Source of the DNA: Psammoneis japonica
Taxonomy: Eukaryota
Direction of reading: 5' to 3'
DNA length: 20,000 bases
Assembly: GCA_008632985.1 (NCBI GenBank)
Contig: QPGO01000026.1
Span: forward strand, 673,727-693,726
Part shown: piece by piece, positions 1-20,000 of the stretch
Layout of the letters: each line of letters starts with the position of its first letter
Position numbering within the stretch: the first letter of the stretch is position 1
The notes under the pieces: generated by a model
The model's database searches: none
Told to the model about the DNA's origin: nothing
Seen by the model: the letters and a program-made list of their open reading frames with translations, nothing else
Position numbers and translations under genes: made by a program

Positions 1-1
1 A

Positions 2-628
2 GAGTCATTGATTGACGGGTGGATGTCTCCGCGGATGCACCATGCATTGACTATCACTGCTGAAATTGAAAAGGACTTTCAAAATTCAGATGAAGGCATT
101 TTCTTCTATCCTGGTCGGCCTACCTCCATTTCCAAATGTGTGTTTGGAATGAGTCGACTTGCCTACATTCCCGCCGATGTTCTCCAGCAACATCCCGAAG
201 GACTTTATAAGAGTTTTGTCGACACGTGGCTCCATCTATGGGAGGTTATGATGCGCATCTTACGCAGTGGCAGGGTACCGACCGTAGATCGCATTCGACA
301 ACAGTTGGAATGCTTCTATATAAGGTTTGATGAGCGCAAGGTACGACACTACTTTAGCAAAGGTGGCAAGATTGAATATGCTGTAGATGCCTTAATTGGC
401 ATCACCCGAAATGTCGTCATGGACGGTGACGACGGATGGGAGTATGAAGAATTCCGGGAGGAGATTGAGTCTCACCCGGAGACTCCTATGGATAAGGATT
501 TTGATCTAGTGTGGTTCAAGTGCATAACACAAGGTGGTGGTGACTTAAACTCTCGTGGGCCATACGACGAGACTCGGAGGCTAGGGCAAAGCTGCCTCTT
601 CGACAATGACGATATGGCTGACTATTAG
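2..628 (+). CDS. 3' part of a hypothetical protein, open at the window edge
   Basis: Frame open from base 2 to TAG at 626-628 (>206 codons) with protein-like composition (DGWMSPRM...GGKIEYAVDAL). No function recognised. Confidence 0.7.
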   Translation, partial: ESLIDGWMSPRMHHALTITAEIEKDFQNSDEGIFFYPGRPTSISKCVFGMSRLAYIPADVLQQHPEGLYKSFVDTWLHLWEVMMRILRSGRVPTVDRIRQQLECFYIRFDERKVRHYFSKGGKIEYAVDALIGITRNVVMDGDDGWEYEEFREEIESHPETPMDKDFDLVWFKCITQGGGDLNSRGPYDETRRLGQSCLFDNDDMADY

Positions 629-1110
629 TCAGAGTCAAATAGATAATTGGTATTAACTTATTTTGCGATGGAATTAAGGAGAGCCAAACGCCGCCTCTAG
701 AAACCAGGCGAAGGAACTCGACATGGCTCGTAACGCCAGGACGCACCGGTGCAGCCTTCGACTTGGATTGGTAACTACTGTTGTCTTGTGATTCTTTCTC
801 GTTTGAGGCCAACGGAAACTACTGGCCGAACTGTTTGTTTCGATGCTTCGGACCCTCTCGGACTACTCTCGAGAACAACTAGAATCTCGTTTCCTTTGCA
901 AGCAGCCTCACACGATGAAATCTACCACGACAACGAAAGAGGCGCGGGCGAGTATATTCGATTTTCTATTTGTCTTTGTGGAATTTTCACTGAAAGAGAC
1001 TGTTTACACAACATATGCAGTTTGACACACTAATTGGAAACAAAATTCTTACAATCAAGAATTGCAGTGCATAGTGCACGACTATATCAAACCAGCTATC
1101 TCCGGTCCCA

Positions 1111-2118
1111 CTACTTGTAGTCAACGTCCTTCTCTTGATCTTCATCGTCAAGAATGACGATACTATCTTGGGGAATGATCACGACGTGTTCCTCTTCATC
1201 TTCTGTTGGAGCACTTGCGGGTACAGAAGATGGAATCGAGTCCTCGGGATGGATCGCATCCGCGCCATTATGATGTTCAGTAATGCAACACTCCCGAACC
1301 ATCACCACGTTCACAGTATCCTCAACCTCTTCCTCATTGGCCATCATGGCTGCTGGACAACAGTTTGACCTTGGAGGATTCTTCCATTCCTGAAAGGGCA
1401 TTCGAAAGGCCCAACGAGTGTAGTGAGCCAAACGTCGCGTGTGTTGGTGCCACGCTTGACCCACGCCACAATCCAACGAAAAGAGGGCACAAATCATGGC
1501 ATTGATTACGGCCAAGAGTTCAACAAGCAAGACATTGACCCAGAGCAAAAGGATGTCTGTCCATAAAAACACTTGAAGCATAATCCAAAAAACGGATAGA
1601 GGAAGAAAGGTCAGAACGTTGAGCTTGCAGCAGTGACAAATCTTGTGGAAACCAACCGCCATGAGATAGAGCGGAGCAGAGATTGTCTCGAGTATGAATG
1701 CGCACAGGACGGCAATGAGAGCAATGGTAAAACCAAAGACACAAGCAAACAAACCACCGTGTTTTCTTTTTGGAGTCTCGGTTGGAGCGGCCGTGTTTGA
1801 TGCTTGTTCCGCTTCAGACGACTCTCCGTTATTATTAGCCACGGGTACACCCGTTACGTGGTGCGTCGTAGTAGCTCTTCCTTCTTCATAGACAGTTTTC
1901 CACGGGTTGTCTGGAGTAAAGAAACGAGGATCAATAGTAACATGGGCGTTTTCAGGATGGAGTGTAGCGATCCAGGATACATAAGATGAGTTTGGATTCA
2001 ACGCCAAATGTGCATCGAGATGACTGCGGATCATACGGGTACTTTCCTGCCGAGACGCAGCAGCAGTCGCTTCTGCATCTTCGTCGCTTGCGGAAGAAGC
2101 ATTTTCCTTATTCCTCAT
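1111..2118 (-). CDS. Hypothetical multi-pass membrane protein (start uncertain; an upstream exon is possible)
   Basis: Long ORF with first ATG at 2118. N-terminal globular motif YVSWIATLHPEN...IDPRF, several hydrophobic segments (GLFACVFGFTIALIAVLCAFIL, LTFLPLSVFWIMLQVFLW, ILLLWVNVLLVELLAVINAMICALF) and an acidic tail. Confidence 0.75.
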   Translation of the reverse strand: MRNKENASSASDEDAEATAAASRQESTRMIRSHLDAHLALNPNSSYVSWIATLHPENAHVTIDPRFFTPDNPWKTVYEEGRATTTHHVTGVPVANNNGESSEAEQASNTAAPTETPKRKHGGLFACVFGFTIALIAVLCAFILETISAPLYLMAVGFHKICHCCKLNVLTFLPLSVFWIMLQVFLWTDILLLWVNVLLVELLAVINAMICALFSLDCGVGQAWHQHTRRLAHYTRWAFRMPFQEWKNPPRSNCCPAAMMANEEEVEDTVNVVMVRECCITEHHNGADAIHPEDSIPSSVPASAPTEDEEEHVVIIPQDSIVILDDEDQEKDVDYK

Positions 2119-2483
2119 TGACACAAACCACAGTAGAAGGAAACAAAAGATGGTCTTGAAGTGTTTGTGAACTGCCAAGATGTGAATGATGATGTGAAGA
2201 AAAAAATGAGGCAATCTCGCCTTCGCACGACTCAACTATCACAAGTGGGTCCTTGTTCTGCGGTCTCAAGTCACAGAAAAAAAATAGAGCAACCCAACCA
2301 ACCAACGAAATCCCAAAAAAGTACCAACATGAAATGAAAATCTCCTGCATCTGCAACATTAGAACCCGATTCTTATTTACACAATGCAAACGCAGCGGAT
2401 TGTAAGGATGTGTGGGTCGTAGAGCCTACAATGTCGACGTCAAGAACCTGGTCGAGTGGCTTGAACCGCAATCCGCGCCTTCT

Positions 2484-2565
2484 TTTCGCGCGCAAATGCT
2501 TCGCTCGCTCCGATTCCCGCGCAAAAGTCTGTCGTCGCGCGTCAAAGATCTTTCAATCTCCCGCC
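2484..2565. promoter_or_regulatory. CpG-rich cluster of E2F-like motifs in a divergent promoter
   Basis: TTTCGCGC 2484-2491, ATTCCCGC 2513-2520 and TCTCCCGCC 2557-2565 resemble the WTTSSCSS E2F consensus. They lie between divergently oriented genes. Confidence 0.3.
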
Positions 2566-2960
2566 CCTGCTTCCGAGGAGCGACCAGTTGGGAGTGAGAG
2601 CGACGTGCGACCCACGACCCACCCACACTCTGGGGGACGTCTTCGGAAGTGAGACTGTCGAAGAAAGTTACGTAGAATTTGTACTAAAACAGTCTGTCAA
2701 TCAGTGCGATTGGGTATTTGGGACCTCTGGACAGATCCTACGTGTTTTCTTGCGCGTACAAAATGTACTGGAAAAACCCCCAAACGCACTGGCGATCAGA
2801 CCGCCATCGACGATCTCACTTCCAAAGACGCCCCCCAACTCCACACTACACATCAACGCAACGCTTCACAAGAAAAGGTTGCAGCGTGTGCTAAATTGAT
2901 TGTGTTTGTTGCCTTCTTATATTCTTGAAACCAATTGTATTTATACATATTATTCACAAT

Positions 2961-4967
2961 ATGTCATCGTTGGCTACAATCAATGTTGACTGGTCTTCCG
3001 ATACCGCCTTGATGACAACGTTGATTCCAAAGTCTTCGGCAACGGTTGCCGATTGGATTTTGGAAATCATAGAGCGAGGAGGTTTAGCAACGTGGTGGTA
3101 TTTTCCCCATTTACCACAAGGAGACAAAATTGTTGATTTTTGGTGCAATTTTCGACAGGGAATACGAATGAACATTATAATGGAACCACAACGACGTGAA
3201 CAACAACAGCGCGTGGCTCATTATCGTTATTTTGTTCGAGCCTATCACAAAGTGGGAAGCCACGAAACGTTTTGGGATCCCTTTTGTTGTATAGCCGATT
3301 TGTTACCACCGGGTCAACAATATCATGTTTCGTTGTGGTTGGAGCCTGTCGAGTATTGGGTGTATGATTATGAACGCAGAAACGACAATGATCCCATCAA
3401 TTGCGATGATCCAACACCGCCTCTTTCCACAACCATGACGTTGGCATATGAACCACCAAGAAGAGGAGCTGTAGAGGGGTGGGTGGTTCAAGACGCAGCA
3501 GCAGATAACAATGAAGACAACAGTGATGCATCTGCAGCAGCATCGTCGTCCTCGAATTCATCTTCAGGCTCCTCGACGAGTCACATGGACACAGAAGAGG
3601 AATTGAACAATGCCTATCACAAGGAGGCATCGCCACCAACCGAAGAAGAAGCAGGAAAAGACAGTATCCTGCAGGCGGCCAAAGTGGCTAGCTTGGCTTC
3701 AACTGCCAACAAGGAACAGGCGACTACTACAGCTGCTGCTGCAATTGCCTCGGAAAAGATAGACACTGCAACGTCTTCCGCTCTGGCCAGTCCTGATGAA
3801 AAGGCGAATGAGGCTACCGCAAAGGCAAATGGGCCCGAGACAGCAGCTAATGGCAGCGGAACAGAAGAGACGGAACCCACTGTGAAAGAGACAGAGGAAA
3901 CAAAAGACGACACCAACGAAGAAGCTAATGAGGAATCAAGTGTTGTGAATGGCGCGATAAAAGGGATGGGGACAAGTGTTGAAGATAAAGAGGAAAACGC
4001 AAAAGAAGCAAAGAACGATTCAACTGCTAACAAAGAGGACGGACCTAGCAACCATGAGGAATCAAAAGCTAAAACAGACATGGCCGACGAAAATGAAGAC
4101 GAGGATGATTCGAGCTCAACTACAAGTAGTAGTAGCAGTAGTAGCAGCAGCAGCTCGAGTTCGTCATCATCTTCCTCTTCGAGTTCAAGCGAAAGTTCTT
4201 CTTCGTCATCCAAGCCAGACGAAGAACATGCTCCAGTACCAGTCACGCAAGAAGATCCGCCAGAGGAAATAGAGCCTGATTCGCCAGAACAGAAAACAAA
4301 CGACGTGATCCCGGATTCACCAAACGACAAGAAGGAGCCTGGCAAAGACAAAGACAACGTGATCCCGGATTCACCAAGCGACAAGAAGGAGCGTGACAAA
4401 GGAAAAGGTGACATTGATCCAGACCAAGACAGCGTAGTGGATCGTGTACCCGACAATGACGAGCAAAAGGGTGTCGTTTCACCAGAGGCACAGAAAGAAG
4501 AGGGATCCAAGAAGGAGGAAGAGGATTTGTCGAGTACGAGCTCATCATCGTCTTCTTCTAGTAGCTCCGCCTCCTCGTCGTCATCATCATCTTCTTCTTC
4601 TACATCATCATCATCATCCGATTCTAGTAGCACTAAAGAAAAGCAAGGAGAAGAGACACAATCTAAAACTACCAAATCAATGGAGCCAGAGGCACAAGCC
4701 AAAGAGGAGCAAGAAAAAGGGAAACAAACTACAGCCACCAGCAAAAAGGAGCAAGAGGTACAGATTGCCAAGCAAGAAGAAAAACAAACCGAGAAAGTAA
4801 ACGAAGAGAACCATGATGCCTTGAAACCGGAGAATGGGACTTCCAATGACACGAGCTCGCAGCAAGAGACTCCTGCAGCGGCGAGTCCAACTGCCGGCGT
4901 GAGGCGTTCCTCTCGTCGCAGGAAACCATTGTTGGATCCAAATTTCAAGTTTGGAAAGAAAATGTAA
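2961..4967 (+). CDS. Acidic, Ser-rich, largely disordered protein with an aromatic N-terminal domain and a basic C-terminal RRSSRRRK motif
   Basis: 668-codon ORF from ATG 2961. Three poly-Ser tracts, Glu/Lys/Asp-rich linker, C-terminal NLS-like RRSSRRRKP. No signal peptide. Confidence 0.8.
   Translation: MSSLATINVDWSSDTALMTTLIPKSSATVADWILEIIERGGLATWWYFPHLPQGDKIVDFWCNFRQGIRMNIIMEPQRREQQQRVAHYRYFVRAYHKVGSHETFWDPFCCIADLLPPGQQYHVSLWLEPVEYWVYDYERRNDNDPINCDDPTPPLSTTMTLAYEPPRRGAVEGWVVQDAAADNNEDNSDASAAASSSSNSSSGSSTSHMDTEEELNNAYHKEASPPTEEEAGKDSILQAAKVASLASTANKEQATTTAAAAIASEKIDTATSSALASPDEKANEATAKANGPETAANGSGTEETEPTVKETEETKDDTNEEANEESSVVNGAIKGMGTSVEDKEENAKEAKNDSTANKEDGPSNHEESKAKTDMADENEDEDDSSSTTSSSSSSSSSSSSSSSSSSSSSSESSSSSSKPDEEHAPVPVTQEDPPEEIEPDSPEQKTNDVIPDSPNDKKEPGKDKDNVIPDSPSDKKERDKGKGDIDPDQDSVVDRVPDNDEQKGVVSPEAQKEEGSKKEEEDLSSTSSSSSSSSSSASSSSSSSSSSTSSSSSDSSSTKEKQGEETQSKTTKSMEPEAQAKEEQEKGKQTTATSKKEQEVQIAKQEEKQTEKVNEENHDALKPENGTSNDTSSQQETPAAASPTAGVRRSSRRRKPLLDPNFKFGKKM
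4303..4410 (+). repeat. In-frame 54-bp tandem duplication (VIPDSPxDKKE x2)
   Basis: acgtgatcccggattcaccaa.cgacaagaaggagc starts at both 4303 and 4357. Confidence 0.9.
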
Positions 4968-5087
4968 TTTATTTCATCAAAGAAGTTCTAGCTAGAGGAG
5001 GGATGACTTTCAATACGTTCTACTTTTATTTACACTTGTCACAATGAAGCGATTGGATTCTACAAGTACGCGACGGCAAAACTGAAC

Positions 5088-5110
5088 GGGGGGGGGGGGG
5101 GGGGGGNNNN
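5088..5110. other. G19 run ending in an assembly gap (nnnn 5107-5110)
   Basis: Seen directly. Contiguity across this point is not guaranteed. Confidence 0.95.
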
Positions 5111-5713
5111 ACGCAAAGTTTACCAAGGGTATTGGGAGTACCTTGCTGGAGTGTGAATGACTATCCATGCTAAATGCTCATTTCAGCTACAATGATGAAC
5201 AAGGATATCCTTATATTGGGATGCAGAAGAAGCACGTGAGAGGACTCAAAAAGCTAGCAGCAAAGATTGAAGGAGTCATGTGAATTGTTCAGAAGTTCGC
5301 CTCTTTGGGGGCAGCGACGACTTTTGCAAGCGTCCTTTGAATCCTGTATTGCCAGATTCACTACGTACATTTGCCCCGCGCGAAACTCATCTTTGAAAGA
5401 ACTACGGCGAGCTGAACCGGGACAAGTTCAGTTCCTTGCTAGAGTGCCTAAGGACAATATCGGGAACATGGAACGATGACATGAGCGTTTCATGTCTCGT
5501 TCGCTTGTTAGTTCAATAAGTGCCTTTGAAAACTCTCAACGCCAGCGCTGCTCACAGCCGTGATGGAATCCTGATTCTCGTCCTCGCTGCCGTCGTTTGA
5601 GGATACCGACAAGTTGGTGTTAGTGTCTTTTTGACTTTTCTAAACTAGGCACGAGGAGAAGTAAATAAGCTGCTTATAGAAGTAGTATATAGTGAACCAA
5701 GTATGTGCCCAAC

Positions 5714-8173
5714 TCACTTCAGTCGTCTCGTCCGATCATCCATGTCTCGATCTCGTTTCTGCCGGTCACTGTAGTCCAAGCCATGGAATCCACCCCCGAC
5801 TCGATCTCGGTTTTCCCAGTCAACGCCACTTAGAAATTCTTTTATACTTTCAATAACTTCGTGTAAAGTCATTTCAGTTACACCATACTTCCTTCCCAAA
5901 AATCCTTTCATGTTTGCTCTTGCCAGATCATCATTATACCTCTGCACAAATTCATCCTGAGACTGAGCTGTTTGTCCTTCATTTCTCAGTGCGCAAAAGC
6001 ACTCGTCGTGGCCGTCATAAATGTGGCGAAAATCAAACGTAACATCGCCAGCATCAGTTAAAACACGGAGCTTCCTGTCAGAAGCGTCATTGAAGAGACG
6101 GGCATTTTCCCCGCACCCCCTACACCTACCCTTGACTCTAAACCGAAGGCTCCTCTTCTTTTGCTGCTTTGTTACAATATTCAAATCTCTGTGTCTTAGC
6201 ATTGGCTGCTCTTCGTCTTGGACACTCACTTCCGTAATGTAGCGGAACTCTGGGTCGCAGTAGGACCTGCATGGACGTGATAGTGAAAGCGGTTAGTGTG
6301 AGATGTTTGAATGCGGTGTTTGACGAAAAATATTCCTGGACTTACGTTGCGGCAGAGTTGTATTCGTTCAAGAAACTGTCACCGAGATAGCCAAAGTCTT
6401 TCTCCAAGGGATCACCCGTGAAATCCAAGTCATAGTCACTTTCAAACACATCTTGTTGCCAATCGCAGTTAACCACCCCATATTCTATGACAGTGTTCAC
6501 CGATTTCAAATTCGATAAGCTTCCATGGGCCTCAGTCTCGAAGAGCGCTTCTTGGAAAGCATCTCTGAATTCTGCCTCCATGGGTGCGCGATTTTCGGTA
6601 AGGCCTCCAGCGCACTCGCAGGTTGTTGGCGTCTTGTCCGCCAACACAGAAAGGACCTTCTCCTCGTTTCTACGATTGCCGGCGTCAAAGAGATGTGTGT
6701 CTTCTGTGCAGCCAATACCTTCGCAACTTCCAGTGACTCTATACAGAAAGTTTCGTGAGGTGAGTTTGTGGCCTTCCATGTGTTTCAAGATGTGGTCCGT
6801 CTCTACCACCGTGACTCTCTCCACAACCCGTTTCGAATCCATGTCGCAAACATGCTCTTCTTGACTGGGGGCATTAAGAGCATTGTACGTGTCACGAAAT
6901 GCGCTTTCAAGGATTGGAAATATCTCTTCATTGCTCTCGTCGGGATCGTGCAGCGTGTGTTCCACAAGGGCGTACGTTTCAAAGGTTCCCGAACGTTTGC
7001 AGGACGAAAGACCTTTGACATGCCCCCCTACTGACTTTTTTGTGGTAGTCTGTGCCTTAAGACCTCCCTCCGACTTGTTTGTCGTAGCTCGTATCGGGAA
7101 TGGAGTTGGTTCAGCCGTTTCTCTTGTGGTTGGCTCGGGCGTCGGCTCCTGAGTTGAGGGTATCGTTGGCGGTGGTGTTGGCGAAGGCGTGGGATTCTGG
7201 GTGAGAGCACGTGCCGTGGCACCACCGCCTGTCTCACCGTTCTGGTCTATGCCTTCGGTTTCTAATTCCTTCGTCAGCGGGCTTCTTGATGGGGAAGAAT
7301 TAGAAGCTGCGACTTGCTTCTGAGGGTTTGGAGCTTTACACCGTCTCTTCACCATGAACTTCCCACCAACGACGTTCCCTTGACAAGAGATCTTCCTTTT
7401 GCGCCATCGTTATTCTTGAGTTTCATTTTCTTACCTGAATCATTGTCTTGAAAAACTAACGTTGAGTTGTACGCATTCCCACTAAACACGATTGAGTCAG
7501 TTGCGACGTTGCCAACAATATCAATGGCGTGGAACTTGTTTCCTTCGATGGCAATCCTCTTGGCGTTGGAGTTCATACTGATGAAAGCTTTCTTGGAGCC
7601 CGTCACAGTATTCTTTGATACGATCAATGACTTTCCTTTCTTCAACATGTTGTTGACTATCTTGAGAGTGTGAACAGAATTCTTATCAACTGTGATAGTG
7701 TCTGCTAGGACTCCTTGGATCTCGACACTGGAACTGGATCCGGAACTTTCGTAGACTTTAAGATTTCCGCCTATATGAACGTAGCATCCCTCTGCTGAAA
7801 TGGAAACCTGGCTCGTTCTTTTTGCCTTGATACCCGTCTTGAACATTGGACAAACATTTTCTTCAGATGAAACAACCAAACTGCTCCTACGTTTTAAAGT
7901 GATCTCTCCTTCAAAGGTGACTTGTCCAGTGATGATGAGTGTCGCTCCCCTATTCACTTGGACTTTATCATAAATCGTGACTGGAGACGATCCCTTGATC
8001 CCTCCGTAAATTGTGCATGTCGCACCATTTGGTACGTTGACCTCGTCGCGTTCAAGACCTCCATGTCCGTTTATCTCTCCAGGCGCCTTTGATGTGCCAC
8101 ACAAGAACTCACCCCTTGCAAATGGGGCACTCAACGCTAGCGTCCAAGAAACAAAGCAACGCATAGTCCTCAT
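5714..8173 (-). CDS. Secreted modular protein: signal peptide, beta-solenoid-like N-domain, Pro/Thr linker, two Cys-containing modules. Three listed ORFs probably form one gene.
   Basis: Signal-like MRCFVSWTLALSAPFARG and repeated (I/V)xGN/NN rungs. PTPSPTPPPT linker. Module YN..CD..R..V..YRVTGSCEG.GC...LF is repeated as YN..CDPEFR..FRVKGRCRGC...LF. Intron 6345-6267 joins two ORFs in frame. The junction near 7375-7435 needs a -1 shift or a short intron. Confidence 0.7.
6267..6345 (-). other. 79-bp spliceosomal intron
   Basis: GTAAGT donor, CTAAC branch point, TGCAG acceptor. Splicing gives NSAAT-SYCDPEFRYITEVSVQ in frame. Confidence 0.9.
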
Positions 8174-8601
8174 TTTGGATCTTTTGGACTTGTTCTCAAA
8201 CCAAACATGACGAGAAAAAATGGGATGGACGTCGTGGTGAAAACCATACCACCCGGGGCTTAATTAAAAATCGTTTGTAGCAGGACATTCTAAGATATTA
8301 GAATGTCTATGAACAGTGTCTCGTCACTGGGCATAATTTTACGATCATGTGCGGGTGCCGTGTGACGAGGAAAAGATGAAGGAGGGCTTATGAGGCAAGC
8401 ATTGAATGACCTCACGTATTGCCCGAATCAACATTAGTCGTAGATTGATTCATTCGACTGAATTTGTCTATGATCATCTCCGTGACTCATTTTCGTGGAA
8501 CAATTTGAGGGTCACCCACATGATTTGTTCTTGCAACATGACCAGCATTTCATTTTTTCATCCGCCGTGTGCTTCTCGACCCACTTGGTCCAGCACGCAC
8601 C

Positions 8602-9442
8602 TGTTGGAACATTGGGGTTAGAGGCAGTTTTCACAGGACAGACACAGACAAAGACACACTGAGCGACGATTGTGGCGGGCAATGTGGCAAGTCGATCTTG
8701 TCAGATGCAAACGAAAAGGCAGCCAAGGCTTGGAAGCAGCTGGCGCTCATTCATCAAGATGAGGTGGAAGCACTTTTTTTAAGATTGTTGGCACAATTGG
8801 TTTGCAAGCTCAGTTGAAACAGGAGTGGAAACACACGTCCTGTGGCAGGATCATCCCGGACGGAAGAAATCACCAAAAAAGAAGATGGACCCAGCAAGGA
8901 TGCCAATGACGCCTGGAACAAAAAAAAGGAACAAGCCATTGGTGGCGATGCCAGTGGAAGGTGCCAAGGAACACACTGGCAAGTCTTGAAAGACCTGCAT
9001 CAGCGGCTCACATTGGGGGTTGACACTCACCCCAATCCAGCTGAAAAGGCACCATGGGTGTTGGACACACCTGCTGCAGGACCAACAAGAAACCGGGTGG
9101 CACAAGTTTTGCATGGAGTGAGATGAAGCAGATTGAGTGCTGGCAATGCAACAAGTTTGTTGGGCATGTGAGAAGGAGGGTTGCCCTGACAATGATCGTT
9201 CACTGTCAGCAGAGTTGGATGATGTGGGCCATTGGAATTGGCAGAACAGCCAACATGTTGTTGGGTTGCATGGTTTCCAAGTGTCATCCACCCATGCTTG
9301 ATGGGCATGAGGTTGACCAGTTGACATGGCTTGTGTGAAGAAGTGTGTTGGAGCATCAAGGTCAGAGTCAGTTTTTGCAAGACAGACAGACAAAGTCACA
9401 GTGTGATGCACACTGGCGACAATTTTGGACAATGTGGCAAGT
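8602..9442 (+). repeat. Diverged direct repeat, 8602-8692 vs 9346-9442
   Basis: 34 of the first 43 columns are identical and 8 of the 9 mismatches are transitions. Both copies end caatgtggcaagt. Confidence 0.85.
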
Positions 9443-9513
9443 TTGTGTTTGCAACTTGGTTTGAGTTGCAGGTCTTGTTGTGTTCACTTTTTAGCTTCTG
9501 CACCTGGCCAACA
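8602..9513 (+). mobile_element. Degenerate LTR-retrotransposon remnant (partial LTR, gag zinc-knuckle relic, LTR)
   Basis: Two diverged copies start TGTTGGA (8602, 9346). The second ends CCAACA at 9513 (TG...CA, 168 bp). A frameshifted CCHC-like CWQCNKFVGHVRR..CPD lies at 9138-9190. No TSD found. Confidence 0.5.
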
Positions 9514-11470
9514 TGGCAACAGTGATTGACAACAATGGCAACGTGTTTTTGCAAGCCACGCAGCAGGCTCAGAGATCATGGTGAGACCAAATGCACACCA
9601 GCTGGCAAGTGGTGAAGCTCCAACAGCAACAGGAGCTCTTCACGGGGGGGGGGGCATGCAAAAGCACTTTGTCTGTCACTTTTCTTGCTTCTTTGCTGAA
9701 CAGCTGGGCTGGCTTCACTTTTTGTGCATGCTCAGCTGGGTGTTCAAAGAATGCTTCAAAGCAGCAGCACAGCAACATTGGTTTGGTGCTTCAACCTGCC
9801 CACATCTTTGCTGAGCAATGTGTGTGTCACACCACAGCAGTTGTGTTTCTTTAACTTTTCTCAATCACTTGTTGTTTGCAGGCTGCTAGAGAAAAAAGGT
9901 GAAAGCACACTGTGTGCAAGCAAGAGATGCCAGCACACCAGTGTTTGGAGGAACCAAGCCTTCAAATAGAAGCACAAAAAAGCTCAACAAAAAGATGTTG
10001 ATGTTGTGCCAGCAAGGACTTCTGGGCTTGTCATTGGTGGTGTTGGATGGCACCTGCTCTCTTGTGCTGCCTGCCTGTGCAATCTGGGTGGCAGCAGCAG
10101 CAGCCATTGGTGCACATGAGTGGGCAAGCAAGTTGATTGGCACCCCACCATGGCAACAAACGGCTGACTCACTGCTCTCTCTTGCCTCTTGCCATGGTGT
10201 GCAAGAAACCAGAGCTGCTCTGACAAAGCATGCAGAGTGCGGCAGCATGCCATGTCGACTGCATCATGCTGGTCCGGATCCAAACACTCAGAGAAGCGAG
10301 TCCTCATCAAGAAGATTGGTTGCTTGTCTGCGTGCCGATGAGGTCACCTCAACAGCGAATCAGCTGTCCAAGCTGCCGCATCATCACTCTGGACAACCTG
10401 GCACTGTTGGCTAAACATCTGTTGCACCGACCGAGGGAATCTCAGTGCAGTGTGCGCGCAAGTGCAGCAACACTTTCGAACAACATTTGGGCATGAAAAC
10501 AGAAGCAAACAATGTGTGGGGCAAGATGTGATGACAATGGCATTGTTGGACTGTGCTGTTGTTGCTTAAATTCAGTTCAGAAATCATGAATTCAAAGTGC
10601 GATGAAGACAAACTGACACCAAAGGACAACAAGATCGAGACTCTTCGACACCTGCATCGCCAACACGGGCAACAAAGAACAAAAATCAACGTGTGTTTTG
10701 CACGTCTCATTCATTGACACTCACTTCTTTCCTGATTCCTGAGAAACACAACACATGCAACATCAGTGTTGCTGTCTCTGACAGGCTGTCATGTGGCCAC
10801 ACACACTTGGAAACTGCCGAGTGACGAACGCAAACGGAGTCGAAGCACATTCTGTCATTGTGCTTTTGCAAGCATTTTTTGTTCATTCTCCCATCCACAA
10901 GAGCACGAAGCATTGAAATGAATCAATGTTGAACAGCGCCACAAAATGCGTTGCTTTCTAGAGTGCGCACGTGGCAAACACACCAACAAACCACCACGGT
11001 TCATCCACAACATTTGCGTCTGTAGAGCAAAATTTTTAGCACCAGCGTAGAAATGGTGCCAAGATCTTGTGCAGACTTGTGACATGGCAAGACCGCAACG
11101 GAAGATTGCACATTTTTTTCTCAACCCGAAACCTTCGCCATTGTGCTGGAAGTGTTTCGGCAGCCATCGCAAGTGCACCATGCACTGACAATCAGCTCAT
11201 TGCATCATTGATCTTCAAAGGAACATCCCACAATGCTTGTTTGCTTGAAATTGCATGGAAGTTGAAGAAACTCAGTTGCCAACAATCAGGAAGAAATGTT
11301 GCAGCATTCCGAGGGTGCCGACAAGCAGCAACACGGCGGGGTTTCGTGTCTGTTCATCTTGTTGAACCAACAGCTGGAACATTGTCTCTTTCGAACATTC
11401 AAGGTGAGTTAAATGTGAACATTGCAATTCAAAACAATCCCAAAATGTTCTCAGATTTTTTTCGGTACAA

Positions 11471-11527
11471 ATCTACGCAGCTTTGTCGTAGATGGCACAG
11501 AAACCCGTGGCAAGGTTCTGTGCCATC
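11471..11527. repeat. Two overlapping inverted repeats
   Basis: atctacg/cgtagat (11471-11477, 11487-11493) and gatggcacagaa/ttctgtgccatc (11491-11502, 11516-11527). Confidence 0.8.
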
Positions 11528-11822
11528 GAAAATGCTCAGGACCTCGCTGCGCGTTTCTGTGCATGCCGGTAATGAGCAGGGATATCGTCTGTAATTGACA
11601 AGAAATATTTTTAGTCATATGATTCGACGCTAATACCACCGCACGTAAGTTGAACCGTGGTGAAACGGGGTGCTGTACGCGCGAAATGTACGTGCTACCG
11701 TAATCCGCGCCTTGCTTGCCTTCATTGCCGCGATGTGTTGAATTTCAAGACATCGATCTCTAGCTAGAGTGATAGAGCGACAAGAGAGCTCCAACAACAG
11801 CAACAACAACAACCACACGACC

Positions 11823-13084
11823 ATGTCGGCTCCTTGGGCCCGAATAACTGATGATGCCTACAAGTCATGGCTTCTGGAGGCCATGACAGCTGAAGAGTAC
11901 AATGGACTTGGACCTGTTGAACGACGAACTTTACTGACCCAATTTCAGCAGCAGCAACAGCAGGCGCCGTCCCCGAAGCAATTCTCCGAAGAAACCGTTG
12001 CTGGTCTTGCACAGTTTGCAACGGATTATCAAACAAGAAAAAGGACAATTGTACTTTCTGGAGCAACTAGTTCAACGAAAAATGACCTGATGGATATGCT
12101 GAATATGCAAGAGAAAGGGGCTGGCTGGAGAGATAGAACTGCTGTTTCGCAGTCAGGGCAGCATGTCGATGGGTTTTTGTGGTTAAAAAGTAACGAAGAT
12201 TCTGACGAGAATCGTGAAGGGTATATGGCTCATCTCAATGCCTTCATACAAAAACCAGTGGAGTATGCATTAGCAGATGTGCAGCCAGATAGGGACCTGT
12301 TGACGGTACATTTCCTTCGATCAGAACCCGAAAGTCGACAAATACGTGGAACTACTGATGTTGTCATCGCAAAATCAGTTCACGTTAACAATGCGGCAAT
12401 TCGGAACAACATTGAAGCTCTGATTGAATTGAAGAAGCCCAGAACTTGCAAGAAAAAGATCACACCCCACAAACAATTGGTGAACACTTTGCGGCCTCTT
12501 ATCTTAATATCCATTGTCCGGTGGTTTCCGTTTTGACCGATTTGAACGACAGATGGACTTTCTTCTGGTTTGCAAGAGGAGAGGATTGTTTGGGTTCGGC
12601 TGCTCTCTACAAGATCTGTCTCAAGGGATCAAGCGCAGCGGCAGAGGCAAAACACATACTGAATAGCCTTTTCGTCAAAGACGTGCCCGAGGACAGACTT
12701 CCGGCCACCTTTGCTAATCGAATTTCACTTCAGGCTGCCTTGGAGTGTGTCGCAACGAGCAAGAAGACGCGAATTGAAAGTAGTGGCCATGATGAGGGAG
12801 CTGCGAAGCCTGCTGGTGGGTCGGATGAGTCTCCAACACCTAAAAGAAGCCAACATGCCTCTTCACAGAGGGGTGGCAAATCAGATCGAAACAATCAAAG
12901 CATCGTTCGCGGGAATAGCAGTGCCCCAATGAACATGACTGAAATGTTGAGCCTCTTTGCGCCTCCTGCCGATAGAGATGTAGCCAATGAGCTTGACCTG
13001 TTAGATATGGTGGACGAAAATGAACAGTATGAAATTATCCGTTCATTTGCTTTGAAGCACATCGTGCCTTACATGAAGGGATAA
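11823..13084 (+). pseudogene. Crinkler (CRN)-like protein with a restriction-endonuclease-fold domain, interrupted by a -1 frameshift near 12440 (pseudogene or assembly indel)
   Basis: IRGTTDVVIAK...ALIELKK (PD-(D/E)XK-like) is in one frame. QTIGEHFAAS...PVVSVLTDLNDRWTFFWF follows in the -1 frame. One extra base in aagcccagaac joins them. ATG at 11823 with a poly-Gln N-terminal header. Confidence 0.7.
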
Positions 13085-13448
13085 CTGTGAAATCTCTTCC
13101 GGAGCTGTTCTTTGGCCTTTGGGAGAAGCTGAATCGTATCTTTCATCACGGCTACGAATATTAGTATGCATAACGCTGCAACTTTGCTTGGTCAATCCAA
13201 AAGGAGAATGGATCAGAGGAGCGAGAAACGAAGCGGAAGACATGGCGTAACAAAAGTTCGATATGCACGATAATTTAGTTGCTTCTACATGTATGTGGTC
13301 TCTTAATTGCCGAAAGCGCTTATAAAGAAGGATGTGCGTTCTCTCTAGCTAGCTGCTCGAAGTTTGCTATCGTACCGGTAGTTGACCAACAAAAAGGCGC
13401 ACAATTATTGGGGTGCCGAATGTAGTCGTCGTGTCTCTCCGTAGCTAG

Positions 13449-14255
13449 CTAGTCTATGTCTTGTGAGCTAGGATCCACAATGTTAAGTTTGCCATTTCGA
13501 GGTTCAACAGCATGCATGGTGACACCCAGTTGATCGGCAAACTTTTGCGGTACATTGCGTTCTTGGGACTGGTTGTCAAGTTGATGACAACAACTCCTGG
13601 TCTCCCACCTCACCCGCACCGGCCAGTGCGATGAGCGTAGTGCGAAGCATCTGTTGGCGAATCAAAGTTGATCACATGTGTCAAAAGGGGTGAGTCGAGA
13701 CCTCGTGCTGTCAGCTCTTTAGCAACAATGATGCCAACTTAGCCTTCTTGTAACTGAAGCAATCTTCTCACTCCCTCGTCCACCGTGAAGAGGGGCGGCA
13801 ACAATGCCCATGCCCTCTCTAGCTTTTCCACAATGACATCTACCTTTCAAGAGTTTTTGGCAAAAACTGGTGTCTGTTGTGGCAATGGATCAGCATGCAG
13901 TGTTCTTCGCAAAGTCTCAAGAGCATGTCAATGATGCGGAATGTGCACGACACCGTGAATTGCTGTTCAACTGACTCGAGCAGCTTGCCCTTTTCCAGAC
14001 CCTTCCTTTCCACCATCCAATGATGAAGTCACAAGGACATTGTCCTTGTCCACCATTGCAGCTGTGCAATCTTCTTGCAAACATGCTTCTAGCCAGCCAG
14101 CTTCGGAGAGCCCAGCATGTCTGATGCAGTCACAGAGCAAAGGACGGACTGCAACAGATCCCCACGTCATTTCTTCAGGCACTGGGCAATGACATTGGCA
14201 GGATTACGGTGAGGCTTGCACTTCAGCAGAGCATCAAACTCATCCAAAAGAACAA
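13449..14255 (-). pseudogene. 5'-truncated DEAD-box RNA helicase pseudogene (not recognisable in the ORF track)
   Basis: Manual minus-strand translation: motif II LLDEFDALL (DEFD 14244-14233), motif III LCSVT (from SAT), APLHGG, motif V ELTARGLD (ARGLD 13708-13694), HVINFDSP, motif [17 protein letters not shown], stop TAG 13451-13449. Several TGA stops (probably from CGA) and frameshifts. Confidence 0.9.
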
Positions 14256-16190
14256 GATCACAACTCCGAAAACTCACAAAGAATTGCAACGCTTTGTCGG
14301 CATGATCAACTGCTGTCGAGTCATGTGGCCTCAACAATCTCACGTTGTTGCTCCTTTGGCCAGACTCACCTCAACACCGGCAAAGTGGGATTGGACCAAA
14401 ACGGAAGAAAAAGCCTTCAAAAATGTGAAGCACATCATCTCCAAAGACATGTCACTGTCACACCCAAATTTTGACAAACCCTTTGAGATGTGTGCTGATG
14501 CGAGCAATTCTCAATTGGGAGTGGTTGTCATGCAGAACAGTTGGCCTGTTGCTTTCCACAGCCGCAAGCTGAATGGAGCACAGATGCGTTGTGCTGAAAT
14601 GGAAGAAAAAGAACTGTTGTTCACAGTGGAGATGTTAAAAGAGTTCCGGAACGTGCTGTTTGGCCAACAGATGAATGTGCACATGGATCATAAAAATCTC
14701 ACACACAAAAACTTCACAATGGACAGAGTCATGCACTGGCATCTGACAATGGAAGAATGCAGTCCCAAACCAATTTACCTCAAGGGCAAGGCCAACATTG
14801 TTGCAAATGCAATCAGCAGACTCACCATGAAAAAAGTGGAACCTGTGGAAAACCTCAGCAATGAAGAACCAGCTGAAATGTTGCCACCAAAATCCAGTGA
14901 CAATGTCTTTCTGTTGACGTGCAAAGTTCTTGACACTGAACAAAAGCAGGACAAAGACATTCTCTCCAGATTGTCGGGTGCAACACATCACACAAAGATT
15001 CTTCATGGAGGTGAGCGAGGCTGGTTGCTCACATGTCACAAGGACAAAATCATCACTCCAAAGACATTGCAAAAGGCAGTGACGACAGATTGGTGTCACA
15101 CTCACCTTCTTCACCCTGGCACAAACAGAACAGAAGAAACACCATCTCACAAAACACTTGTGGTGGTCTGCCCTGCATGATGACATGCAAAAATGCGTGT
15201 GTCAAAATGTGAGATGTGCCAAAAATTCAAAAAGAAACAGAAGACATTTGGACATTTGCCCCCCCCCCAAGTGTGCAGAAACCAGTGCCATGGGAATGAC
15301 TGTGTGTGGATCTCATTGGACCATGCAAAGTGCATTGCAAGGGAAAGAACAAAGAACCCCCAGCCCTGAAATGTTTGACAATGATTGATCCAGCAACCAG
15401 ATGGTTTGAAGTTGTGGAAATTCCAAACAAGGAATCCACAACTGCAGTTGGACTGTTGGAACAAACATGGTTGAGAGCAGACATCCTTGGCCGTTGTCAA
15501 TTGCACGTGACTGTGGAAGTGAGCTCATCAGACACTGATTTAAAGACATGGTTGAAGAGGGCTGTGGAGCTGCAAAGTCAAGCCTGCAACCACACAAAAT
15601 CCACAGTCGAGCGCAACTGTAGAATGTGCACATCAAGTGCTGGGCAATGTGCTGCATGCATTTGACCCACAACATTCACCGTTGGATGCTGCTGATGATC
15701 TGTTTGCTGGTGTGCCATCCGCAGCAGCCTTTGCTGTGCTTTCTGCATGTCACACCACTGTGCAAACTGCACCAGGACAATCAGTCTTCAATGGAGAGAC
15801 ATGATTTTTAATGTCCAACATGTTGCTGATTAGAAGTTTGTCCAAAAGCAAAAACAGCAAATCACAAATGGAGACAATGCCAAAGAAAACGCTCGATCTG
15901 TGCACTCCATGCATGCACCACAGAGCAGGTGAGAAGACACCACTCGAGAAACACTTCCAAAAATTAGAACAGCTGCATGCAGGGCCACATGCTGTGATGA
16001 CAACGGCACACGCCAATGGCACAGCAAAGATCAAACACAGTGATGTCATTGACGGCTGTCAACATTCATTGTGTTGTGTGCCGTTTTTGACGAATGATGT
16101 CACAATGTGCAATTGGGGAGGCGAACGCAACATGCATTGTCATGTGCATTTTGTGTGTGTGTGTGTGCATTCATTAACAGTTTGGTGACC
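14255..16190 (+). mobile_element. pol: Degenerate 5'-truncated Ty3/Gypsy retrotransposon: RT thumb/connection, RNase H, integrase, GPY/F region, PPT, short LTR remnant
   Basis: Domain order RT-RH-INT. Motifs GMINCCR, CADAS, AFHSRKL, DHKNL, VANAISRL, HLLHPG, CVDLIGP, MIDPATRWFE, DCGSE, NPQS..VECAHQ, GPH. Frameshifts after about 15140. PPT-like ggggaggcgaa at 16115-16125. Confidence 0.93.
16152..16167. repeat. (TG)8 microsatellite
   Basis: Seen directly, inside the presumed LTR remnant. Confidence 0.9.
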
Positions 16191-16475
16191 CTCAAAACAA
16201 CAGCCAAGTGGTTCATGACATGCGCCGAGCGAATTCGGGTTGCAAAACTTTTTTTGCGTGTGCACGCACAGATAGATGCTCGATTTTACTACGCGACGCC
16301 CGCGCGCGCGTGGTCTTACTCCGAGCAACATTCAATCGTGGGAATCATTCCAACGCTCTCTTCCACTTCACTCGCAGGCAGTCCACGTAGAATTCGTACC
16401 ACATTCTACACAACAGCTGCCAGTCACTGAGAGAACGCATTCTCGCAAAAAAACAACAAAAACGCGACAAGCACC

Positions 16476-17959
16476 ATGGGAAACGAAAGTTCCAAGGCAC
16501 GAAAACAACGACAGGACAAAAAGACTCTTGTCCAAGTCGTCAAGTCTTCCTATGCTACTGCCAGTAAGGCTGTTCAATTCCATGATACACCCGCTACAAC
16601 CGCCACAACGGTTGCTGCTGCTTCGCCGTCTTCCGGAAAACATAATTTACTCGTCACGGGTCGATTATCCCATGTCCGCGATACATATCACATGTCTCCT
16701 CAAGAGATTGGACACGGTCATTATGGGATTGTACGTAAATGTCGTCATCGTGAAACGGGTGAATGGTGTGCAATCAAATCGATTCAAAAATCTAAACTCA
16801 GCAATACCAAAGTACTCGAGAGAGAAGTGCATGTCCTGCAAGCACTGCATCATACGCATGTGTTGGAATTGAAACAAATCTTTGAAGATGAACATTATTT
16901 GCATTTTGTCACCGAACTATGCAAGGGAGGTGAACTCTTTGATGAAATTTTGAAACGAGAGCATTTTTCCGAAGTGGACGCAGCGCAACTCATGCGGGAT
17001 GTGCTGTCGGCGATTCGGTATTGTCACGATGAGAAACAGATTTGTCATCGGGATTTAAAGCCCGAGAATTTTTTGTTTTTGAATCCAGATGGAACACACA
17101 TTAAAATTATCGACTTTGGTTTGTCGAGATTTGATTTGGATGGAGAAATCATGAAAACCAAGGTCGGAACGCCGTATTATGTCGCACCGGAAGTGTTGCG
17201 ACGACGATACACCAAGGCGTGTGACATGTGGAGCTTGGGAGTCATTACGGTATGTGTGTGTAGAAAACAGAGCTATTGTTGTTGTTGTTTTATAATTTTG
17301 TATTGCACATCCTCACCATCTTTTCTTTTCTAATTCACTTAACTACAACACAGTACATTCTACTCTGTGGCTACCCACCCTTTTACGGGGATTCCGATGC
17401 CGAAATTTTCAAATCCGTTTCGGCGGGGTATTATTGCTTTCCACAACCCGAATGGAATGACATTTCCGATGAAGCCAAGGACTTTGTCAATAATTTGTTG
17501 CAAATGGATCCCTCCAAACGCATGACGGCAGCCCAAGCGTTGGAACATGAATGGATTACGAAGTATAACAATGAGACAAAACCAAAACCAGAATCATCAT
17601 CACAGCGAGCACAACCACAGCAAAAGCGGAATAGTGTCAAGAGTGAAAAGTATCAACGTGATCGTGCCTTGCAAAAACTCAAAAAGGCAACCTATGCCTA
17701 TTTACAAAAAAACAAGCAACATGCCGATAGCAATGCTTCGACGAGTAGTGACGAAAACAATTCGGAAGATGAAAAACGCATCAAGAGTGCCTTTGATCAT
17801 TTTGTCACGTCGGATTCCAAGGGATTGTCGGTGGATAATGTCAAGGATATTTTAAGAGATTCGGTACAAGCCAAGGAATTGATGGATTTGGTAGATACCA
17901 ATCATGATGGAAGAATATCCTTTGACGAATTCTATCAAGCCATTGTTCAAAAGGAATAA
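16476..17959 (+). CDS. CDPK: Calcium-dependent protein kinase-like, 2 exons (16476-17249, 17354-17959), 459 aa
   Basis: MGNESS myristoylation motif; GHGHYG, AIK, HRDLKPEN, DFG, APE. A 104-bp GTATGT...ACAG intron joins SLGVIT-YILLCGYPPF. Junction LQKLKK and EF-hand DTNHDGRISFDEF. Confidence 0.95.
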
Positions 17960-18243
17960 ACAAAAACTATATTAGAATCGTGAGGCAGTGTTATTGCTTG
18001 ACAGTAGCATAGTCCGTCCTCTCCAGTATGATAGTGATAGTAGTGCTAAAGAGTAGCAGAATCCACACACAAGCTCGGTGTGGTTGCAGCTTTATCAAGC
18101 CGTTGTTCAGAAGGAATAATAAATTAGAATCGTGAAGCAAGGTGTTGCTTGGAGTAGTAGTAGTCCGCCCACTGGTAGTAGTAGGAGTAGAAGTAGTACG
18201 AAATAGTAGCAGAAAGCACAAACATTCGCGGTGTGGTTGGTGC
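17931..18243 (+). repeat. Diverged ~160-bp tandem duplication of the CDPK last codons and 3' UTR
   Basis: tatcaagcc(a/g)ttgttca(a/g)aaggaataa...attagaatcgtga...agtagcagaa...cggtgtggttg starts at both 17933 and 18093. Confidence 0.88.
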
Positions 18244-18290
18244 AAAAGCAGCATGATTGATGCAAAAGGATGAAATACAAACATGCAATT

Positions 18291-19952
18291 CTAATTGTTG
18301 TTTACCGAGAAAGCATACGCGGAACCAGAATGCTCGCCATTGACATCAGTCCGATGAGCACCAACTCCAATGACGCTTCCGTTGGCTGACAAGGAAACGG
18401 AATATCCAAAATTATCATCTTCAGCCTCACCATTCAAAGAATCTCCGACTTGATTCCATTTAGACATGGTGATGTCGTATTGAAAGATTCGAACTTGACC
18501 AACATCGTTCAGTCCATTGACGTCGTGCTGCCAACCACCGACAGCCACAACATTTCCATTTCCACTCAATGATACTGAGACACCAAATCCATCATTTGGC
18601 TGTTGCGTTAACAGAGTTTGGCCACGTTGATTCCATTTAGACGCCGAGCGGTCGTACGAATAAACCAAGACTCTCTCGTCACTTCCAGGTGCGCCCACGG
18701 CCATGGTCAAGCCGCTATCGTCAAGAGAAACAGAACGTCCAAATTGGCCATTAATAACCTGTCCATTGATTGGACTACCCAATGGATGCCATTCTGATGA
18801 TGTAGAATTGTATTCATATACAGACACTTTACCAGCATTGGCTTCAAATGCCCCAACTCCAACAATGGTTCCCAGGGCATTTATGGACACGGAACGTCCG
18901 AAATGGTCTTGACCAAATAGTGCCTGTCCGAGTTGCCTCCAGGAGGATGCGGCACGGTCGTATTGAAACAATTGAACTGATCCATAATTCTCGCCGTTTC
19001 CCAAGCTACTCGAATAAGCTCCCACTGCAAGAATGTCGCCCGCGTCCGACAGCGACACGGAAGAACCAAATCGATCATCAGCGTCTATTCCAAAAAAGGC
19101 ACCACCGAGTTGGACCCAACGATCTGATGCAGAGTCATATTCAAACACTCGAACGTGGCCAACATTTTCTCCGCCACTGTCATTCCATGATGGAGCTCCA
19201 ACCGCAAGAATTGTGCCATCTCCATTTAACGAAACAGACCTTCCAAAATCGTCACCGTCGGCTTGTCCAACCAGTTCTTGACCAATTTGTATCCACTGTT
19301 GGTCTACGTCATTCCGTACGAATTGATTCCTCGACTTTTTTGGGCTGTGTCGATTGACAACAACATAGCCGGGATCAGAAGAAGATTGCTCTGCTCCGAT
19401 AGCCATGACACTACCATGACGAGACAAGGACACCGAAGTGCCAAAATAATCTTTCGCAGCTTTGCCGTGCAATACTTGTCCAGCGGGCTTCCACGTCCCA
19501 TTTGAAATGGCAGATGCAGAAGCTTGGTCAACTGGGGAGATGGTGTTGGCTCTTGGTTGGAAATCGGAGTCATCGTTGATGTCGGGTTCGGTATGCGACC
19601 GTTCCATATGGGACCGTTTTCCCATGGCTTCACTCCTACAACAACACCAACAATCGTAGCAATGATTGTAGTCGCAACTCCTCCAACGACGATGCAACTT
19701 TTGCGACGTCTTCTTATCCCTGCCATTGTTCGAATCAGTTTGATCAACATGGGGTTCTGTATCATCAGAAACCCTAATGACAGGTTCCATAGCCGGGGCT
19801 GGGTGAAGAAGAATGTTCTCTTCTGGAAGTGAGCCGCTTCTTCGTCCGCCACTTGCTCTGGACAGAAGGCGTCTTCATCCGCCTCTGCTCTATACAGAAG
19901 GTGCCGATGCTTCATTGTCATCGCTCTGCTCGCCACCTTTATGCGTTTCCAT
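18291..19952 (-). CDS. FG-GAP (integrin-alpha-like) 7-bladed beta-propeller protein, probably type II membrane-anchored; 5' region disrupted
   Basis: Seven FGxSVS(L/I)xxxGxxxxxG(A/G) repeats in the 18291-19790 ORF. The TM helix CIVVGGVATTIIATIVGVVVGV plus a PT stalk lie in a different frame (about 19700-19530). The in-frame ATG at 19952 is followed by stops at 19892 and 19877. Confidence 0.8.
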
Positions 19953-20000
19953 ATCCTCCCTTACCAGAAAATAGTTAGGCTTAGACTCTTTAACCCTCTC

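Follow-up and report, generated by a model that had tools for sequence, protein, structure and literature searches.

What removes nearly every TpA step from several kilobases of chromosome while GC content stays level with the surroundings, and what decides where the removal stops? The question is raised by a 20,000-nucleotide stretch of the diatom Psammoneis japonica (GenBank assembly GCA_008632985.1, contig QPGO01000026.1, positions 673,727 to 693,726 of the forward strand), hereafter the window, in which positions 8471-11465 form a TpA desert. The desert is delimited by change points and by the observed-to-expected ratios (o/e) of TA, CA, TG and CG, and it is common to both copies of the locus in the genome. 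Here, TpA has become TpG or CpA in the chromosome itself, after insertion of the elements concerned; both strands are affected, each repeat copy has changed independently of the others, and TAC and TAT change fastest. The hypermutation is position-dependent: it covers retrotransposon and DNA-transposon remnants as well as the single-copy DNA between them, and on one copy of the locus an insertion has extended the block by 1.4 kb, with the far side of that insertion left untouched.

By dinucleotide count, the desert holds 13 TpA in 2995 bp (o/e 0.06) and none in 8782-9491, in agreement with a preliminary description made from the sequence alone, whereas 106 would be expected at the left-flank o/e of 0.53 (Poisson P 3e-30). 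All 13 survivors are TAG or TAA on the plus strand. GC amounts to 48% in the desert and 47% in 1-8470, so the shortage is not a GC effect, as had already been argued. CA (o/e 1.89) and TG (o/e 1.73) are in compensating excess, and CG is depleted patchily (o/e 0.41 overall, 0.05-0.84 by segment). The edges had been called abrupt, with 14 TpA in the adjoining 240 bp on the left; the density there is indeed high, although the exact count is 15 (8231-8470). Change points fall at 8469 (support interval 8441-8534) and 11409 (11356-11473), such that the left edge is sharp and the right one slightly softer than described, with a TA o/e of 0.11 in 10991-11465 and the first TA beyond the desert at 11466, 11474 and 11489. 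The desert occupies the space between two divergent open reading frames (ORFs), ending 297 bp from an ATG at 8173 and 357 bp from another at 11823. Tandem repeats were considered as its cause and rejected.

A natural experiment on the targeting rule is provided by the second copy of the locus, on contig C119. This copy is collinear with the window, 98-99% identical over 2872-20000 and ~88% identical further left, and is probably the other haplotype, a segmental duplicate being the alternative. The divergent part (window 1-2554 and the sequence upstream, against C119 253355-261135) has ~86-90% identity and normal TA, and points either to paralogy or to a haplotype block that diverged long ago. 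C119 shares the desert and adds two plus-strand insertions, a LINE-like element (long interspersed nuclear element) of 8049 bp at 7032-7047 with a 16-bp target duplication, and a 4176-bp element at 11344-11349 (C119 232578-236753) with a pair of long terminal repeats (LTRs). Between the LINE and the old desert lies a 1.4-kb gap (7047-8470) comprising the single-copy promoter and 5' half of the left-hand gene, on the minus strand; it has only two places in the genome, in the window and on C119. The gap is normal for TA in the window, but on C119 41 of its 53 TA read TG (25) or CA (16). All 54 substitutions separating the two copies here are transitions, and 41 of the 48 A:T>G:C changes lie at TA. 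Across three control blocks, none of 379 TA changed between the copies (Fisher P 6e-47 against the gap), which sets TA change in the gap at least ~650-fold above background A:T>G:C divergence, a lower bound derived from divergence between the copies and not a measured rate. CG changes are likewise raised (6/71 in the gap versus 4/493 in the control blocks, P 5e-4), as is A>G outside TA (7/664, P 2e-4). No gradient runs along the gap, where 6/8, 9/10, 10/12, 6/8 and 10/15 TA are changed in successive 300-bp steps; left of the LINE on C119, the figure is 0/143.

The reading frame of the left-hand gene on C119 is uninterrupted between its ATG and the LINE, with many replacements that include three of Tyr to Cys or His. 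The window allele carries a 4-bp deletion at 7385 relative to C119, which shifts the frame, yet its TA content is normal; selection on the protein is thus no obvious cause of its border, although the deletion may be recent. We also observed transition pairs on the same strand and two nucleotides apart, resembling bystander edits, at 7772-7774, 7951-7953, 8389-8391, 8442-8444 and 10298-10300 (window versus C119).

Contrasts of this kind could in principle be an assembly artefact, or the desert could be contaminant or intrinsically TA-poor foreign DNA, the latter having been named at the outset as a reason to dismiss it. There is only a single sample, and a long-read consensus could rebuild TA, which may account for some TA-rich islands or reference copies. 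However, contigs assembled separately from public run X1, possibly the same sample as the genome assembly, match the desert (one record over 8445-9455 with 2 other letters, another over 9430-10649 with none and 1 gap). Across the 1.4-kb gap between LINE and desert, they mix letters of C119 with those of the window, with 13 of 18 C119 changes in a record spanning 7708-8246 and 4 of 7 in one spanning 7093-7519, a mosaic that is expected from two collapsed haplotypes; such contigs cannot phase them. Read depth is even through the unique parts, and TA-rich relatives of the desert repeats (L007, L009) are present in the same genome, so that a foreign or intrinsically TA-poor origin does not hold. 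We consider an artefact of any of these kinds highly improbable.

The LINE itself records both the timing and the new left border. Of its two target duplications, the left copy keeps TA, as does the window, whereas the desert-side copy reads TG, which dates the mutation to after the insertion. Its first 200 bp hold 17 TA on C119 versus 3-6 in all seven sister copies that cover this end; the border therefore lies inside the LINE, and the TA-poor 5' ends of the sisters rule out an intrinsic protection of the sequence. Sister copies are 95-96% identical, the nearest differing by 83 TG/CA swap sites and only 7 transversions over 8 kb, and the LINE endonuclease domain scores just under the Pfam cut-off. 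In the LTR element of C119, the two 275-bp LTRs show 18 differences, all transitions, 12 of which make up six TG/CA swaps. This element encodes one long ORF with a 14-residue tandem repeat (DUF6964-like), and its TA is lowest at both ends and higher in the middle.

Three repeats, one of them an LTR remnant, and ~0.73 kb of single-locus DNA make up the desert that both copies share. It begins with 131 bp of single-locus margin (8471-8601; 0 TA), which lies to the left of the first repeat, since run contigs of that repeat begin at 8601/8602. At 8602-9625 follows, on the plus strand, the LTR-element remnant that had been recognized previously, here termed family A (~2 kb, non-coding) and identified from sequence relatives and LTR ends: one LTR starts at 8602, and after an internal part comes a whole LTR of ~280 bp (~9346-9625) with TG...CA ends. 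Its relatives are ~70% identical and every one is TA-poor. The next 600 bp (9626-10225) are found only here and on C119, with a TA o/e of 0.08, a CG o/e of 0.05 and a depth of ~61, like that of the unique flanks. Family B, a low-copy and unclassified repeat (10226-10990, plus strand), is 79% identical to its TA-rich relative L009, and 31 of 40 TA as well as 19 of 40 CG in L009 read TG or CA in the window. The last component is an internally deleted copy of family C (10991-11663, plus strand), a non-autonomous element with terminal inverted repeats (TIRs) that is 1.6 kb at full length, ends in CAC...GTG and makes 4-bp target duplications; we take its ends to recall those of Chapaev/CMC elements. 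In its 5' part, 20 of 26 TA of L007 read TG or CA and no TA has been gained relative to L007, whereas the last 198 bp (to 11663) keep 12 TA (o/e 0.86), which places the right edge of the desert inside the element. The additional sequence previously put at about 2 kb is thereby refined to 1.24 kb of two further repeats and 0.73 kb of single-locus DNA. None of 18 frames, six each from the desert and from its TA-rich relatives L007 and L009, had a Pfam match. Between repeat copies, the choice of TG or CA agrees at only ~44-72% of shared sites; this largely independent choice per copy indicates that the change came after insertion. The TA-rich reference copies could partly be consensus artefacts of the assembly, although the direction of change would stand.

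A comparison of the desert with the wider genome, which the preliminary description had proposed, yielded a bimodal distribution. The 91-Mb assembly was searched, and ten 10-kb stretches were sampled, picked by hand on larger contigs and hence not random; among their 1-kb bins, 36/100 have a TA o/e of 0.2 or less, 58/100 of 0.35 or more, and only 6 lie between. In this genome, then, deserts are common and form a class of their own, and the objection that the TpA o/e might be typical of unique intergenic DNA genome-wide does not hold. Family C follows its neighbours as to which end is mutated, the affected end in L005 being opposite to that in the window. Host gene duplicates are targets too, in that a C5-methyltransferase gene and a deaminase gene have broken, TA-erased copies in L080 and L081 (C301, C297) and L074 (C151). 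Two deserts flank the TIR element at L007:1501-3092, which is TA-rich throughout and 99.8% identical to L008; it may be a very young insertion, perhaps in keeping with episodic activity, or a consensus artefact. Furthermore, among 17 Gypsy copies there are lightly mutated, TA-rich islands of 0.8-0.9 kb with desert on both sides, at fixed positions of the element: four at ~2800-3700 on L052 (L048, L050, L060, L061) and three at ~1600-2600 (L054, L056, L057). The copies still differ from each other inside these islands. Three causes come into question: local protection, places where a sequence-guided targeting signal is missing, or an artefact of long-read consensus building. A relative of the Gypsy element found in a metagenome has normal TA (o/e 0.76-1.30), which agrees with loss of TpA as the direction of change, although this is one locus and uninformative on generality outside this genome.

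Such islands bring up the possibility that the same TpA mutator is guided by homology, through small RNAs or a pairing akin to that seen in repeat-induced point mutation (RIP), and leaks 1-2 kb into the flanks; a deaminase would be compatible with this. The desert is mostly repeat DNA, the islands keep to fixed Gypsy positions, and leakage of RIP into flanking sequence is known. However, leakage should decay with distance, which is not seen across the gap, and none occurred left of the LINE (0/143 TA). Edges inside elements, the mutation of family C at different ends depending on its neighbours and the TA-rich L007 copy between deserts are similarly hard to reconcile with guidance by sequence, and the comparable hypermutation in Bigelowiella natans has, as far as its preprint describes, a single-copy target (Mettrop et al., bioRxiv 10.64898/2026.01.13.699255). 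Homology guidance is therefore judged unlikely, though it deserves to be kept in mind.

The sequence context gives the process its fingerprint. In the gap, A>G counted per strand-site depends strongly on the 5' base (T 41/104, A 3/242, C 1/203, G 3/219). The fitted relative rates by +1 base are C 3.5, T 3.3, G 1.7 and A 1, and those at +2 are C 2.1, G 1.8 and T 1.4; the fit used 1632 observations with sites re-used across copies, and the gap alone gives the same trend. Survivors mirror this preference. Once 18 of 280 bins with intermediate TA counts are omitted, a purine comes after the surviving TA on each strand in 116/219 cases in 106 desert bins versus 536/2940 in 156 normal bins, and ATAT occurs 0 times in the former versus 206 in the latter. 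There is no bias toward the sense strand (450 TG versus 482 CA over 8 Gypsy comparisons). Runs of same-strand changes were significant in 1 of 14 tests (the gap, P 0.012) and absent when pooled, which fits many independent hits and not one processive pass; a processive enzyme is accordingly unsupported.

This spectrum bears on three further explanations. In the first, error-prone repair, deamination of methyl-CpG would leave T:G mismatches whose long-patch repair by a polymerase-eta-like enzyme errs at W-A. The raised CG (6/71) and non-TA A>G (7/664) changes of the gap would suit it, as would the single significant run test and three non-TA changes that each have a same-strand TA change two nucleotides away. 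Nevertheless, polymerase eta has only a modest bias for TA over AA, with an AA rate comparable to that at TA, whereas here TA exceeds AA ~30-fold, TA loss (77%) is far above CG loss (8%), and strand coordination is absent from the pooled data. In Bigelowiella, 230 of 231 changes reported in the preprint are A:T>G:C, which again does not suit such repair, and we hold this explanation to be very unlikely. A lesion on the thymine side is scarcely easier to defend, although a little less improbable. In this case, the T of R-T-A would be oxidized or otherwise modified so as to pair with G, and the symmetry of TpA would make the resulting T>C look like A>G in all alignments; the 5-hydroxymethyluracil of dinoflagellates is said to favour TpA. 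However, the genome search returned 0 Tet_JBP (PF12851) candidates, a blank that does not show absence, and the T-A-Y context on the A strand resembles a known deaminase target. Lastly, ADAR-type editing of retroelement RNA could be fixed by reverse transcription. Two A_deamin genes are present in the genome, and ADAR is cited in the Bigelowiella preprint as preferring a 5' U. Editing of this kind should affect the sense strand only, whereas the strands are equal, and a +1 G is disfavoured; moreover, in-place changes are seen in a host-type gene, in a target duplication and in a derivative of a DNA transposon. RNA editing is refuted by these in-place changes in single-copy DNA, and hardly any credence is left to it.

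The account that we favour, with a probability of roughly 0.55 for the model as a whole, is that a nuclear adenine deaminase guided by silenced domains leaves a position-dependent scar at the DNA level. Transposable elements would nucleate a silenced, CpG-methylated domain, the methylation being suggested by the parallel but weaker loss of CG. Transposable elements of another diatom are described as CG-methylated islands overlapping H3K9me2/3 and H3K27me3 (PMC9998398). Neighbouring domains would merge, with everything between them rewritten, and their borders would stop short of active promoters. The silenced domain would recruit or license a deaminase with a TadA/ADAT or ADAT1/ADAR fold, and this enzyme would turn the adenine in TpA into hypoxanthine, to be fixed as G at replication. 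Hits would then build up over many rounds until TpA is nearly gone and Tyr and stop codons are destroyed. The outcome would be an irreversible genome defence, RIP-like in effect, opposite in chemistry and requiring no duplicate. The preliminary description had proposed that the process acts on chromatin-sized domains. Its position-dependence is borne out by the hit on single-copy DNA, the edges that cut through elements and the 1.4-kb extension on C119; the part played by chromatin is what we infer.

Candidates for such an enzyme were found by profile searches of the genome, namely an ADAT2-like gene, a TadA-like gene and two genes of the A_deamin family (ADAT1/ADAR fold). The latter are located in L092-L095 (C40, C79); the second is divergent and a candidate, and an ESM Atlas search with one of its exons returned nothing. 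L040 (C79) encodes a nucleoside-deaminase domain that appears, read by eye, to be fused to a 2-oxoglutarate/Fe(II)-oxygenase-like domain. C5-methyltransferase gives 29 matches. ADAT3 was not recognized in the genome search, which also gave 0 candidates for methylpurine glycosylase (PF02245), although such a blank does not show absence. The T-A-Y(C/G) context resembles the U-A-C-G target reported for wild-type TadA (PMC10586758), without singling out any candidate deaminase. The ADAT2-like gene does carry the Asn to which the Bigelowiella preprint points.

Several points weigh against the deaminase model. That Asn is general in known eukaryotic ADAT2, and the amphioxus ADAT2 favours GAA and not TA, according to the same source (PMC10354150). 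No chromatin-binding domain occurs in the deaminase pieces scanned, which were exons only, and the genome encodes an endonuclease V. Since TpA is its own reverse complement, a lesion of A and one of T look alike in sequence. The sparse same-strand runs would also count against it if the enzyme were processive. The gap result represents one event, and spread from the LINE was one-sided, with none to the left. Borders near promoters could also reflect selection, and the Gypsy islands are unexplained by a purely cis-acting domain.

Beyond the desert, the window offers both targets and untouched sequence. The left-hand gene (5714-8173, minus strand, ATG at 8173; ORFs 7349-8263, 6342-7409 and 5714-6292) is a host-type gene of an unnamed family. 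It carries a repeat domain and has 63 unnamed relatives in a full HMMER search; word-index homolog searches found none, and for its N-terminal part ESM Atlas returned leads that all stayed below 0.9. Both of its alleles appear broken. On the other side, the ORF at 11823-13084 (plus strand) is interrupted at 12437-12440, where C119 and contigs of runs X1 and X2 have one more C, probably indicating an assembly slip. After ~2 kb of normal TA, in which 0/87 TA differ between the window and C119, a second desert (13485-16272) covers a Gypsy-type pol remnant (reverse transcriptase/RNase H). It has the same dinucleotide signature, and the proposal that the two blocks (the Gypsy one at ~13.5-16.3 kb) are separate targets of the same process is thereby upheld. 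Further right, a calcium-dependent protein kinase (16476-17959) and an FG-GAP repeat protein (18291-19874) have normal TA; as at other desert borders, TA returns before the coding sequence, at ~200 bp upstream of the ATG in the case of the kinase. The best named relatives of the kinase, at 55-62% identity, are from diatoms and from Triparma, a relative of diatoms, with plants at 39-50%.

With these results, a mutational defence so far described in a single preprint is extended to another lineage of eukaryotes, at a far greater scale. Because one stretch of single-copy DNA can be compared in the presence and absence of a neighbouring insertion, the locus constitutes a natural experiment on whether chromatin domain or homology sets the target. 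The T-A-Y fingerprint helps to narrow the search for a natural enzyme that would act as an adenine base editor of chromosomes. In genomes of this kind, estimates of repeat age and heterozygosity are distorted, as are gene models such as long ORFs poor in Tyr. A more ambitious version of the model is offered tentatively, being possible but somewhat doubtful: a dedicated T-A-Y DNA adenine deaminase would read silent chromatin and spread with it in cis, and a single insertion would thereby alter the genes next to it for good, on its own chromosome alone; the system would be an old, so far unrecognized genome defence of the SAR supergroup (stramenopiles, alveolates and Rhizaria), shared between diatoms and chlorarachniophytes.

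When compared with known systems, the process has parallels to several. The DNMT5-dependent CG methylation of diatom transposons similarly forms islands over transposable elements within a genome that is unmethylated elsewhere, and would explain the loss of CG to TG or CA (PMC9998398). However, cytosine deamination cannot remove TpA, and in young blocks TA loss is far ahead of CG loss. RIP of ascomycetes also consists of irreversible, dinucleotide-specific transitions in repeats, on both strands and with collateral damage to flanks, but it makes TpA from CpA, whereas here TpA is destroyed and CpA and TpG are gained; in addition, RIP is triggered by duplication and hits both copies, whereas the gap has two places of which one is mutated. 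RIP also acts premeiotically and involves a methyltransferase of the RID/DNMT4 type. To our knowledge, no natural member of the TadA/ADAT family has been shown to hypermutate chromosomal domains. Nonetheless, these enzymes and the adenine base editors share the A>G change via inosine, TadA-8e is reported to prefer UA, and amphioxus ADAT2/3 can deaminate DNA (PMC10586758, PMC12296453, PMC10354150). The closest counterpart is that of B. natans, the sole relevant match in a literature search that mostly could not reach subscription papers and returned no diatom report of TpA hypermutation. According to the preprint's main text, integrated DNA of nucleocytoplasmic large DNA viruses (NCLDV), as well as that of virophages, undergoes TpA hypermutation in that species, with a signature measured directly in mutation-accumulation lines at about three orders of magnitude over background, where it continues through mitotic growth but in some lines only, and ADAT2 is proposed as the enzyme (bioRxiv 10.64898/2026.01.13.699255). 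Both systems turn TpA into TpG or CpA on both strands, in blocks of foreign or repeat DNA, and can target single-copy DNA. Confinement of A:T>G:C almost only to TpA recurs here (41/48 gap changes), as do kilobase-scale foreign or repeat blocks, here joined by single-copy host-type DNA between elements. The host, however, is a rhizarian there and a diatom, thus a stramenopile, here; the targets in P. japonica are LINE, LTR and TIR elements and the host DNA between them; the change is near saturation (o/e 0.06, versus 0.45 for the NCLDV region); about a third of the sampled 1-kb bins are affected; and on one haplotype the change runs on into a host-type gene. The preprint's main text is silent on spread, on a +1 pyrimidine preference and on CG loss, although its Table S2 may hold context. 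Relative to that main text, the diatom host, the involvement of all transposon classes, the near saturation, the haplotype-specific extension, the +1 preference and the CG loss are new.

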